Assembly: GCF_006345805.1 (NCBI RefSeq)
Contig: NC_043014.1
Coordinates: 1,488,001-1,552,000 of the forward strand
Direction of reading: 5' to 3'
DNA length: 64,000 bases
Origin: Octopus sinensis
Taxonomy: Eukaryota
Of the stretch, positions 16,519 to 53,705 are shown piece after piece. The translations under genes were made by a program, and so were the position numbers. The notes below the pieces were generated by a model. The model did not search any database, was not told where the DNA came from, and saw only the letters and a program-made list of their open reading frames with translations. How positions within the stretch are numbered: position 1 is the first letter of the stretch; the number at the start of each line of letters is the position of its first letter.

Positions 16519-16716
16519 ATGTGACCTCGTGTGTACCGTTGGCGATTTTTTTCCTTCTGTCTTCCCTTCTCTGGATCTTTCCTTCTCCTATGTTTCCGAC
16601 GAAGAGCTCCGCTCGAAACGTTAAACCCTCCTTCTTTCCTGAGCGTCCAATAATACTATATTTGTTCCACGTCCTCGCGTTGTTGTGTTTTTTTGTGCTT
16701 TCTTGTTTGGATTAAC
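16519..16716 (+). mobile_element. Family D: ~200-bp hammerhead-bearing repeat, copy 1 (HHR 16592-16626)
   Basis: GUUU-CCGACGA-A-GAGC-UCC-GCUC-GAAAC-GUU-AAAC; other copies at 24409, 49804 and 53507; ends in (TA)n. Confidence 0.75.
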
Positions 16717-16819
16717 TATATATATATATATATACACACACACATTTGATAGTATATCGTATGATATACACCTGGTAGCTTACCTGTAAAGCACGTTCAC
16801 TTTCAGAGTGTTCGTTGGG

Positions 16820-17074
16820 TATTTGGTTAATGAGAGACGGAAGATGGAAGATACGAGAATGTTTATTAATTACTAGCATCGATCCCTCAAGGGTAAGATC
16901 TCTAAAAACTGATTTAGGAGTATCCGACGGTGTAGATGTGTCTCTTCGGATACTTCTAAGCCAGTTGTTAGGCATTCCACCTGCGAGGGATCGATGGTAG
17001 ATCGGTCGAAACAGTTGTAGTGATTAATAAACATTCTGGTATCTTCCATTTTCCGTCTCACTCATTAATCAAAT
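16820..17074. mobile_element. Foldback (palindromic) element with HHR motif in the right arm (16978-17022)
   Basis: Three nested inverted segments; CAC-CUGCGA-GG-GAUCGAU-GGUAG-AUCGGUC-GAAAC-AGUU-GUA-GUG. Confidence 0.75.
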
Positions 17075-17142
17075 ATATAATATATGCATTTATATTACTA
17101 TTATTATTATTATTATTATTATTATTATTATTATTATTATTA

Positions 17143-17345
17143 TTGGCAGAAACGTTAGCACACTGGGCGAAATGTGTGGCCGTATTTCGTCTGCCGTTAC
17201 GTTCTGAGTTCAAATTCCGCCGAGGTCGACTTTGCCTTTCATCGTTTCGGGGTCGATAAATTAAGTACCAGTTACGCACTGGAGTCGATATCTGTCCTTG
17301 TTTGTCCCCTCTGTGTTTGGCCCCTTGGGGGTAGTAAAGAAATAA
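17143..17345 (+). mobile_element. SINE family A
   Basis: Match to family; preceded by (TTA)n. Confidence 0.9.
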
Positions 17346-17512
17346 TAATAATAATAATAATAATAATAATTATTATTATTATTATTATTTGCCCTTTTCT
17401 CTGATTCATCTGCATACATGCACTCGCACATAAATGCTTGTGAGTATACATATATATATATGTGTGTGTGCTCGCGCTCGTAATGTATGTATCTCCACAT
17501 ACAGACATAGAT

Positions 17513-17744
17513 ATATTTCTTTACTACCCAAAAGGGGCTAAACATAGAGGGGACAAACAAGGACAGACAAACGGATTAAGTCGATTACATCGACCCCAGT
17601 GCGTAACTGGTACTTAATTTCTCGACCCTGAAAGGATGAAAGGCAAAGTCGACCTCGGCGGAATTTGAACCCAGAACGTAGCGGCAGACGAAATACGGCT
17701 ACACATTTCGCCCGGTGTGCTAACGTTTCTGCAAGTTCGCCGCC
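17513..17744 (-). mobile_element. SINE family A, full length, inverted relative to its neighbour
   Basis: Reverse complement of the 28167-28396 copy. Confidence 0.92.
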
Positions 17745-18229
17745 TGTAGATAAACGTATGTGTATATGCGTGTATGCATGTATGCGAATATATATATATA
17801 TATATATATATATATATATATATATACACACACACAGCGCACATGTACATATACATACGCATGTGTACATATGTATATATAATACGCTTTTTGTTTCACG
17901 AATGAGAGAAAGATTACTAAATAAATGCTTTAAAGTATATTATTTCAGCTTCATATATATCACACACACACACACATTCATACACACACACACACACACA
18001 CTATAATCCCACACATACGCTCACACATACACTCCACGCACACAGAGAATACCAGGTATGTTTACTGGTCCATAAGTGTCTGGCTGTATGTCGAGGTGTG
18101 CGTATCAGAGTCTATCAGTTGCGTGGATATAAAAACGAATTTGGTATCTCAAACCAGAAATTATTCCGCTGGATCCGAATAATGGAACACTGTGTTAGAA
18201 TAGAACACCCCTTCTCACCCCACACACGC

Positions 18230-18762
18230 ATGTATACATGTATATATATATTATATATGTATATATACACACATATATATATATATATATATATGTATAT
18301 ATGTATATATACATATACATACATACATACATACATACATACATACATATATATACATATATGTATATATGTATATATATATATACATACATATATATAT
18401 ATATACATATATACACACACACACACATATATATATATGTATATATATATATATGTATGCATATGTATATATACATATATATGTGTGTGTATATATGTAT
18501 ATATATATATATACATACATATATATATATATATATATATATATATATGGACGTATATATGTATGTATGCATGCATGTTTGTATGTATGCATGCATGTAT
18601 GTATGTATGCATGTATGTGTGTGTGTGTATGTATGTATGTATGTGTGTGTGTGTATGTACGTATGTATGTATGTATGTATGTATGTATGTATGTATGTAT
18701 GTATGTATGTATGTATGTAAGTATGTATGTATGTGTGTGTGTGTATGTGTGTATGTATGCAT
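18230..18762. repeat. (TA)n/(TACA)n/(TATG)n compound microsatellite
   Basis: Visible simple repeat. Confidence 0.95.
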
Positions 18763-19037
18763 ACTTCTATAGTTTGCTGTTCCAATATAGGTAGGCACAA
18801 CAAGCAGCGCTCCATCCAGTGAGAAATAAATATAATTCAATACACAAATAATTCTTCCAAAATGGAAAACATTTCTCAAAGCGAGCAACAATCACCAGCT
18901 ACATTATGAAAATTATTGCCACCAAACGTAAAGAAAGTCGGTATGAAATGGCTAAATAGATCTTAGAGAGCTTTGTTCTCTGAAGAGACGGAAGTGATAT
19001 CTCTACCAGAAATACATCAACACGTTGTATACAAGGA

Positions 19038-51008: not shown

Positions 51009-51375
51009 GGAGGCGCAATGGCCCAGTGGTTAGGGCAGCGGACTCGCGGTTTCGATTCCCAGACCGGGCGTTGTGAGCGTTTATTGAGCGAAAACACCTA
51101 AAAGCTCCACTAGACTCCGGCAGGGGATGGTGGTGATCCCTGCTGTACTCTTTTACCACAACTTTCTCTCACTCTTACTTTCTGTTTCTGTTGTACCTGT
51201 ATTTCAAAGGGCCGGCCTTGTCACTCTCTGTGTCACGCTGAATATCCCCGAGAACTACGTTAAGGGTACACGTGTCTGTGGAGTGCTCAGCCACTTACAC
51301 GTTAATTTCACGAGCAGGCTGTTCCGTTGATTCGGATCAACCGGAACCCTCATCGTCGTAACCGACGGAGTGCTT
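51009..51375 (+). mobile_element. SINE family C, full length
   Basis: Near-identical to 16127-16500. Confidence 0.92.
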
Positions 51376-51914
51376 CCACACAATCCTTCACACAAAATGA
51401 GCATTATATTCTTCAGGAAGTACAGATCCCTCTTTCGAACGTCTGCGAATTTCATGTCATCTTCACCGCCTTCGTCGTCATATTTGTTGTAATTTACGCG
51501 GTAGTATTTCGGAATCGTCTATCTTTTCCGACTGGATATCCCACTTCCTTTTTCCTGTCACTTTCCTTCCTTCTCCTGCTTCCATCACGTCACCTCTCAT
51601 AGTCACAATACGATAGTCTAGTTGGTTGTGTATAATTGTCTATAGTAAAAATGACAATAATGTATTAACACTAACAGATTGATACTGCAAAAACTAAATA
51701 ATTATTTTACAGCTAGTATTGCTACGGATTTGTATATGTGTTATAAATGTTATACACGCTGGTATTTCATCTAAGAGTGTTATATTCACTTTTATATTAA
51801 TTGCATATATTAATTTAGTTATTACCTGGCTAGCTTTCGCACAGGTTGTTCCGTTTATTGAATTTTACATCAGAACAAGCATTTTAGGCTTAGCTTAAAA
51901 CGTCCTAGGTATTT

Positions 51915-51957
51915 GTCACTGAGGGGACTAAATAATTTCGAAACACTAGTGTCTGAC
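51915..51957 (+). ncRNA. Type I hammerhead-like motif (A9 to G variant)
   Basis: GUCA-CUGAGGG-GACUAAAUAAUUUC-GAAAC-ACUAGU-GUC-UGAC: perfect 4-bp stem I, palindromic stem III, GUC site, weak stem II. Confidence 0.65.
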
Positions 51958-52509
51958 TCTCACCGACATTCTAAGCAAAGTTCTGAAGAATTTGAAGTTA
52001 GAGCGCAGTGAGTCGGAACTAAAACCGATTATTCAGCAATCTAACGATTCTGTCAATTTACCGTTATAACGTTCTGAAGAAGCGGGTTGAAAAAACTAAA
52101 GAATTACATTTTCTTAACTATTGAAAAAATAAAAATTAAGGTGGTGAGATGTCAAAGAATGTAGCCATTTCTGAAAAGATGTTGATAGATTACCGCTGAG
52201 GATGGCAAAAAAGAAAAAGACGCTCGAGAAAATATTGATAATAAGAACTATAAATTTTAGGTAGGTGAGGGTCATTCTCGGAAGACATCTGTTAATCTAT
52301 TTATACGTGCATTCTGATATATAAATAAATAAATAAGTAAATAATAAATAAATAGATAAATAATAATAATAATAACAACAATAATAATAATAATAATAAC
52401 AACAACAACAACAACAACAACAACAATAATAATAATAATAATAATAATAATAATAATAATAATAATAATTATTATTATTATTATGTTATTATTATAACAA
52501 TAACAAATA

Positions 52510-52912
52510 GGCGCAGGAGTGTCTGTGTGGTAAGTAGCTTGTTTATCAACCACATGGTTCCGGGTTCAGTCCCACTGCGTGGCACCTTGGGCAAGTGTCT
52601 TCTACTATTGCCTCGGACCGACCAAAGCCTTGTGAGTGGATTTGGTAGACGGAAACTGAAAGAAGCCTGTCGTATATATGTATATATGTGTATGTGTGTG
52701 TGTTTGTGCGTCTGTGTTTGTCCCCCTAGCATTGCTTGACAACCGATGCTGGTGTATTTATGTCCCCGCCTTTAGCGGTTCGGCAAAAGAGACCGATAGA
52801 ATAAGTACTGGGCTTACAAAGAATAAGTCCCGGGGTCGAGTTGCTCGATTAAAGGCGGTGCTCCAGGATGGCCGCAGTCAAATGACTGAAACAAGTAAAA
52901 GAGTAAAGAGTA
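52510..52912 (+). mobile_element. SINE family B, full length
   Basis: Near-identical to 48935-49338. Confidence 0.93.
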
Positions 52913-52919
52913 ATTCTTG

Positions 52920-53090
52920 TAATTTTGGCTCAATATCAGCAATTTTCGTAAGAGGGGATTGTCGTTTACATCAGCCACAGTACTTGACTGTTCCTTTATT
53001 TTATCGATTCCGAAGGGATAATAGGCAATGTCGATCTTAGCGGATTTGAACCCAGAATGTAAAGAGACGGAAGAAATGCCGCTAAGCATT
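52920..53090 (-). mobile_element. Degenerate SINE family A
   Basis: GGATTTGAACCCAGAATGTAAAG...GAAATGCCGCTAAGCATT. Confidence 0.7.
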
Positions 53091-53506
53091 GTTTCCGAAA
53101 TTAGACCGAAATTAGTTTGGTTTTAACAAGATTTCGTGATGTTCATTCTTTTCGTGAGGGCAATGAGCGCCGTAAGTGAAGTGCAATCGGGATCTTAAAC
53201 CGCATTGCAATCTCTTGTCCTGTAAAAGATATGAACTACTGAATCAATGAGTTGCCTTTATTAGGGCCCATGTGACTACACAACTGAGAAATATATTTGG
53301 GGGAGGTACAGCACACATATCATAAAATAACATATATACATATATACATATATATAGATACTTATATACAAAGATGCATGCATGAATGCACACATGTACA
53401 TATACATGTATGCATACATAGATGTTGGATCAATCATCGGTTACATACGCATACACACAGATATAGATAGCTGAATATATAAGTTTATGTGTGTTAGTAT
53501 ATATAT

Positions 53507-53705
53507 CGCGTGTGTACCGTTGGCGATTTTTCCTCCGTCTTCCCTTCCTTGGATGTTTCCTTTTCCTATGTTTCTGACGAAGAGCCCCGAGCGAAACGTT
53601 AAATCCTCCTTCTTTCTTTCCTTTCCTGAGCGTCCAATAACACTAGACTTGTTTCACGTCCTCACGTTGTTGTGTTTTCTCTTGTGTTTTCATGTTTGGA
53701 TTAAC
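53507..53705 (+). mobile_element. Family D hammerhead-bearing repeat, copy 3 (HHR 53570-53604)
   Basis: Canonical CUGACGA core but stem II disrupted (GAGC-CCC-GAGC); flanked by TA tracts. Confidence 0.8.

Follow-up and report, generated by a model that had tools for sequence, protein, structure and literature searches.

The window analysed here is a stretch of 64,000 nucleotides from Octopus sinensis (contig NC_043014.1, positions 1,488,001 to 1,552,000 of the forward strand), in which four copies of a repeat with a minimal hammerhead ribozyme motif are found. The comparison with related loci makes it highly probable that these repeats are 5'-truncated 3' ends (pseudo-long terminal repeats, pLTRs) of a Penelope-like element (PLE), a retrotransposon, inserted in TA tracts, and that they carry a known, dimer-type hammerhead for which slow cleavage, if any, is predicted in the variant with C at core position 4 (C4). 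Below, C4 and U4 denote the base at core position 4, and A6U denotes U in place of A at position 6. The features concerned are listed by their position in the window:

16519-16716, plus strand: copy 1, a solo 3' end (pLTR stub) of the C4 lineage, with a TA tract directly after it
16592-16626, plus strand: minimal type I hammerhead of copy 1, located by sequence, pattern and fold scripts
16592-16595, 16596-16602 and 16603, plus strand: 5' strand of stem I, core CCGACGA and extra A of copy 1
16604-16607 with 16611-16614, and 16615-16621, plus strand: stem II of copy 1 with its UCC loop, and GAAACGU
16622 and 16623-16626, plus strand: N17 (U) of copy 1, after which the cut is predicted, and 3' strand of stem I
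24409-24616, plus strand: copy 2, a solo pLTR stub of the C4 lineage with TA tracts on either side
24482-24518, plus strand: hammerhead of copy 2, its stem I longer by a single T and a single A
49804-49912, plus strand: 5'-truncated older relative in which the CUGA box is missing and whose nearest match is an A6U-type copy
53509-53705, plus strand: stub of the U4 subfamily, with a canonical core at 53574-53580, a broken stem II and the linked diagnostic sites

Sequence comparison confirmed the four plus-strand copies that an earlier reading, made from the sequence alone (the sequence-only reading), had placed here. Their common orientation is a matter of chance, since exact matches to the core pattern, counted on both strands of the 2.72-Gb genome (G000), number 4,673 forward and 4,622 reverse, 9,295 in all, with 0 matches for the reversed pattern used as a control. 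Identity to copy 1 is 93% for 24409-24616, 83.5% for 53509-53705 and 75% for 49804-49912. Copies 1 and 2 share the motif GUUU(U)-CCGACGA-A-GAGC-UCC-GCUC-GAAACGU-U-AAA(A)C, in which the GUUU/AAAC of copy 1, the GUUUU/AAAAC of copy 2, the CCGACGA of both and GAAACGUU are read as previously described. The canonical CUGACGA that had been assigned to a third copy does exist, at 53574, but stem II of that copy is broken (GAGC-CCC-GAGC, one pair in register), and the copy at 49804 has no CUGA box. The latter fragment spans only unit positions 82-185, contains neither C3-A6 nor the palindrome, and its best match is an A6U-type relative (L016, 85%), so that it belongs to a different subfamily from the other copies. 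As a whole, the observation of the sequence-only reading was partly confirmed and its interpretation partly supported. There was no hammerhead among the 150 of 319 Rfam matches of the window that were listed, and copy 1 gave two CRISPR-repeat matches only, both by chance. No ORF (open reading frame) fragment of the element was found within the window.

The copies share a common 3' end and extend upstream to a variable degree into a CA-rich tract, forming a ladder of 5' truncations, and the longer ones run in the 5' direction through a CA-rich 3' untranslated region (UTR) into an ORF with a reverse transcriptase (RT), a CX4CxxC linker and a GIY-YIG endonuclease. A 3' end of the window type is joined to the element body at 14 loci: L120 and L098 have the complete order of pLTR, ORF, UTR and pLTR with the ORF in pieces, and a third, L131, has part of the ORF. 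Copy 1 is 93-94% identical to both pLTRs of the full-length element L120, and at L061 two copies lie 6.27 kb apart around a broken RT ORF. In a sister lineage, the frame of L184 and L185 is open throughout and encodes DKG, YIDD, the CX4CxxC linker and a GIY-YIG domain containing two internal cysteines (an ATG ORF of 949 aa in L184); their pLTRs show 0 and 2 mismatches, respectively, with C4 in both elements. All eight elements examined have pLTRs in direct orientation on both sides of the ORF, their two hammerheads being 4.7-6.3 kb apart, and what had been taken for a stand-alone repeat of about 200 bp is better described as the 3' end of a Penelope-like element of that length.

The single ORF of L184, with the RT followed by the GIY-YIG endonuclease, is that of an endonuclease-positive (EN+) PLE. 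Pfam RVT_1 and GIY-YIG match the element ORF below the curated cut-offs, and a CX2-5CxxC linker lies between RT and endonuclease in L184, L185, L212, L218, L098 and L204. There are 324 homologs, with 38-54% identity among the 120 listed; no solved-structure match was found for the RT region. TA-like sequence lies 3' of 71 of the 84 copies with a recognisable 3' end, a further 16 of 100 copies having no recognisable end. Frame breaks are present in the ORFs of otherwise young elements (L061, L120, L212, L218), several at homopolymer runs, and may be assembly errors. Three stubs stand in a row at L120:5760-6516 with only TA tracts between them, so that a read-through transcript would carry hammerheads about 280 nt apart, and at L016:1501-1888, L186 and L197 neighbouring copies of different lineages lie head-to-head or tail-to-tail.

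From these sequence features the clade is likely Neptune. A DKG RT, a C-terminal GIY-YIG with two internal cysteines and a CX2-5CxxC linker are listed for Neptune and Nematis by Craig et al. (PMC8557442), and partial tandem pLTRs, inverted 5' pieces and TA-tract targets are further likenesses, the TA targeting favouring Neptune over Nematis. The octopus element differs in its very long CA-rich 3' UTR and its sharp hotspot of 200-bp stubs. Six short two-unit loci (L121, L123, L124, L126, L128 and L132) consist of a pLTR piece, 130-350 bp of the 5' body of the element and a second pLTR; they show six different junctions and are possibly template jumps or internal deletions. Tandem arrays of the unit, which the sequence-only reading had suggested looking for, were absent from the loci seen, no genome-wide array search having been run. 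The non-LTR retrozymes (bioRxiv 10.64898/2026.07.22.740005) are likewise short hammerhead-bearing sequences from PLE pLTRs, but their definition requires hammerhead-bearing units in tandem, whereas the window copies are all solo stubs.

The 5' ends of the copies were analysed in the first 100 of 7,031 matches to a downstream anchor, all from one contig and including two duplicated pairs. Copies from cut RNA are expected to start at unit position 105; 75 of the 100 start between unit positions -10 and +19 and one within 2 nt of the cut site, so no cut-site footprint was found in these genomic 5' ends. The start hotspot about 100 nt 5' of the cut site accounts for the uniform stubs of about 200 bp, and since the stubs run through the hammerhead, the insertion templates were likely uncut. 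A hairpin as the cause of the hotspot was weakened as a candidate, as five solo sister-lineage copies without the hairpin start at the same place, judged by eye. The reading of an uncut template agrees with the findings on Poseidon of Anolis (PAc; Frangieh et al. 2024, PMC11167929), whose hammerhead cuts only with protein, whose insertion in vitro does not need cleavage and for which no reads end at the cut site. Both systems have a pLTR hammerhead, an AT-rich target and uncut RNA as the insertion substrate, the latter being inferred here from genomic copies. PAc, however, belongs to another clade. Its hammerhead overlaps the start codon, whereas the one here lies upstream of the ORF, and the mutants tested in PAc concerned C3 and G8, while position 4 varies here.

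The motif corresponds to the minimal type I hammerhead ribozymes (min-HHRs) described in pLTRs of metazoan PLEs by Cervera and de la Pena (2014, PMC4209133), which have no loop III, a palindromic 15.2-16.2, an extra base after A9 and a G10.1-C11.1 pair. Here the GAAA box, the palindromic 15.2-16.2, the absence of loop III, H at position 17, the extra base between 9 and 10.1, the G10.1-C11.1 pair and a short stem I are all found, and the CUGANGA box is present in the U4 subfamily (2,764 exact cores) and absent from the C4 majority (6,531 of 9,295). The motif sequence bears out the earlier statement that this minimal hammerhead could form stem III only in a dimer through ACGU; the architecture is not a novelty, the loop-less type with the ACGU palindrome being already published (PMC4209133). 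The published min-HHRs also occur as thousands of solo copies, as do those from truncated elements here; their monomers are uncut and their dimers cut weakly, a low dimer activity that is predicted here as well. The differences are that about 70% of the exact cores here have C4, whereas the excerpts of PMC4209133 name only a U3-A8 core variant, that stem II has 4 bp against 7-8, and that the motif is nearly invariant across lineages, whereas the published text stresses high variability. In folding predictions, the hammerhead form of copy 1 reaches -4.6 kcal/mol compared with -7.2 for a hairpin pairing the core with the GUH strand, and the C4 hammerhead is predicted to cut slowly if at all.

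The count of C versus U at position 4 (6,531 and 2,764) shows that C4 is no local subfamily. Moreover, in a motif-independent sample of 40 of the 150 listed RT matches, half of them chosen for long open frames, 37 loci had a 3' pLTR and 35 of these covered position 4, with C4 in 33. C4 is the majority base in all 12 non-U4 lineages of the 13 examined. In public contigs, T at position 4 made up 27%, 26% and 12% of the summed depth in three runs, depth being no measure of copy number. C4 is part of a CpG, whose decay could produce U4, but this origin was rejected because G5A, the mirror change expected on the opposite strand, occurs in only 234 cores compared with 2,764 with U4, and because U4 is linked to four of five flanking diagnostic sites (Fisher p 1.5e-6 to 0.002; the fifth was parsed in 2 copies only); U4 is thus a linked subfamily. 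The proposed subfamily amplified with a variant core therefore holds in so far as C4 and U4 both mark amplified lineages, but C4 is the majority state and U4 the minority one. Likewise, "young" fits some lineages only, since the C4 and U4 groups are alike in divergence (medians 7.1%, n = 8, and 8.0%, n = 25; p = 0.11).

A tree was built from 44 ORF sequences, L193 being excluded for its shortness. In it the U4 rows fall, on starred branches, within the C4 rows, and a grouping of the two U4 rows with the outgroup was rejected by the approximately unbiased test (p-AU 0.0015). A reversion from C4 to U4 is the favoured reading. U4C lowers hammerhead activity considerably in vitro, yet a natural viroid variant with it stays infectious (Perreault et al., PMC3088659). 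This variant has the same core change and a lower in vitro activity, but it is rare and belongs to a full ribozyme, whereas here most copies in a retroelement clade carry U4C and the motif has no stem III. Literature searches on hammerheads of PLEs and cephalopods and on core variants gave no description of a PLE hammerhead with U4C, but Lunse et al. (PMC5785218), a work on PLE hammerhead variants, or the supplements of PMC4209133 may show one. One implication is that a search pattern fixed on CUGANGA would overlook the greater part of these motifs in the octopus genome.

Conservation was compared between 13 lineage majorities, built from 32 of the 37 ends and copy 1 and grouped by visual judgement; five rows that were damaged or truncated (L191, L199, L213, L216 and L219) received no lineage. 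Within the motif, from stem I to U16.1, one of 30 columns is variable, namely position 4, compared with 92 of 168 columns outside it, where the best non-overlapping 30-column window has 6. All other core bases, G10.1-C11.1, the palindrome, loop II and N7 are invariant, and position 17 is always H. By this comparison the motif appears to be under purifying selection in the master lineages. A sister family with A6U accounts for 17,684 exact CUGUNGA cores genome-wide. It includes L101 (minus strand), whose RT is 65% identical, and L224-L253 and is a related family of the RT, linker and GIY-YIG type; it has the same stem II with a different loop, a free position 7 and C-G as pair 4 of stem I.

The compensatory change in stem I suggested by the sequence-only reading was not recovered as a feature of the family. 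Stem I is plain in 2,155 exact C4 copies of the window's lineage, and 11 copies gain only an A; the three copies genome-wide that gain a T have one (copy 2), none and two extra A. Copy 2 is the only one of them with matched runs, so that unpaired gains exceed paired ones by 12 to 1, plus one overshoot, and family-wide compensation was rejected. Among 73 parseable cores of the 100 anchor-picked copies, 55 have 3 T and 3 A and none has 4 and 4. The double gain of copy 2 is a rare one-off, a chance or assembly event, and local homopolymer error would explain linked gains of T and A. Real covariation appears only between families: pair 4 is G-C in the window's family, whereas 23 of 30 copies from the A6U family have C-G.

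Some other features of the window were noted, a general repeat search being swamped by microsatellites. At 16126-16505 (plus strand), just 5' of copy 1, lies a repeat of about 380 bp with a tRNA-like head recognised by eye; it also precedes the stub in L023 (96% over 378 bp) and is likely a short interspersed nuclear element whose tail served as the target. A minimal hammerhead candidate of a different family is present at about 1600-1640 on the minus strand; its first box is canonical, its stem II is long, and a microsatellite tail lies nearby. Two core-pattern matches without the short stem III palindrome, at 7625 and 58068 (plus strand), are probably due to chance, and the former sits in sequence that we take to resemble a remnant of a mariner-type transposase.

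A further reading of these observations, possible but less likely than not, is that two large Neptune-type radiations each fixed a different harmful core change (U4C and A6U) while the fold was kept, that one lineage regained U4, that insertions were made from uncut RNA, and that the PLE hammerhead, de-tuned or without catalytic activity, would be recognised by the element's own protein. The main reading, highly probable as a whole, draws for its mechanism on what is known of PLE biology: the endonuclease would nick AT-rich DNA and the RT would copy the element RNA starting near the 3' end of the pLTR. Stubs would result because most copying ends at the hotspot about 200 nt in, where either transcription starts or the RT stalls. 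The motif is likely retained either for a weak ribozyme activity that depends on dimerisation and on protein, or because the element's protein binds its fold, and the copies would decay after insertion, the double base gain of copy 2 being one of the accidents described above. Several points weigh against these conclusions. The conservation columns are interdependent and the assignment to lineages was visual, the clade was placed by described features, and the work of an active ribozyme could go without any trace in genomic copies. A root on the branch of the whole U4 clade (four members, one C4 row) was not rejected (p-AU 0.24), so that the change between C4 and U4 may have run in either direction. 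Finally, the A run is longer in two of the three T-gain copies, which is above independence (one of the two non-index copies, p about 0.01).

It is also possible, though less likely than not, that the C4 hammerhead is fully functional in vivo. A transcript's two pLTR copies would then dimerise via ACGU, the element's protein or a chaperone would offset U4C, and the cut RNA would be translated or circularised instead of serving as the insertion template. The invariance of the other core bases, G10.1-C11.1 and the palindrome across the 13 lineages speaks for this, as do the free position 7 of the sister family and the constant H at 17, both as in hammerheads; the infectious U4C viroid variant (PMC3088659) and the protein-assisted cleavage known for one PLE (PMC11167929) point the same way. 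However, stem I has only 4 bp, and half of the RT-selected ends (18 of 36), those of the youngest lineage among them, show a U-U mismatch in it; moreover, the minimum-energy fold of the C4 copies pairs the core with the GUH strand, the larger sister family fixes A6U, and the 100 genomic 5' ends carry no cut-site footprint.

Somewhat unlikely, in our estimation, is a motif that is no longer a ribozyme and has been kept as a hammerhead-derived, sequence-specific signal, such as a protein-binding site, a promoter element or a landmark for the RT. Two large radiations that each fixed a different, normally harmful core change would be explained in this way, as would the invariance across the 13 lineages of loop II and N7, which are free in hammerheads; Craig et al. 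(PMC8557442) also call the function of the hammerhead unclear. Between families, however, pair 4 of stem I is swapped and both loop II and N7 differ, but the catalytic boxes are the same, which fits a retained hammerhead fold, and about 2,800 copies form a canonical U4 subfamily.

The young, stand-alone, retrozyme-like 200-bp repeat with a compensatory stem I and a recent C4 subfamily is very improbable: most copies do measure about 200 bp, the gains of copy 2 are matched and a few two-unit loci exist, but the copies are ends of full elements, all two-unit loci differ in their junction, unpaired gains prevail, and C4 characterises 12 of 13 lineages, its copies being similar in divergence to those with U4.

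PLE stubs with minimal hammerheads are already published and the repeat itself is ordinary. The remaining interest lies in the core, as recently mobile elements keep a 30-nt motif nearly unchanged and yet carry U4C. Insertion did not depend on cleavage in one in vitro study (PMC11167929), and the role of the hammerhead in EN+ PLEs has been called unclear, as noted above. The presence of C4, U4 and A6U side by side constitutes a natural allelic series with which catalysis could be separated from a structural role. If the reading of a de-tuned hammerhead is true, this C4/U4/U6 series, together with the intact ORFs, would make the role of the hammerhead in Penelope-like elements directly testable.

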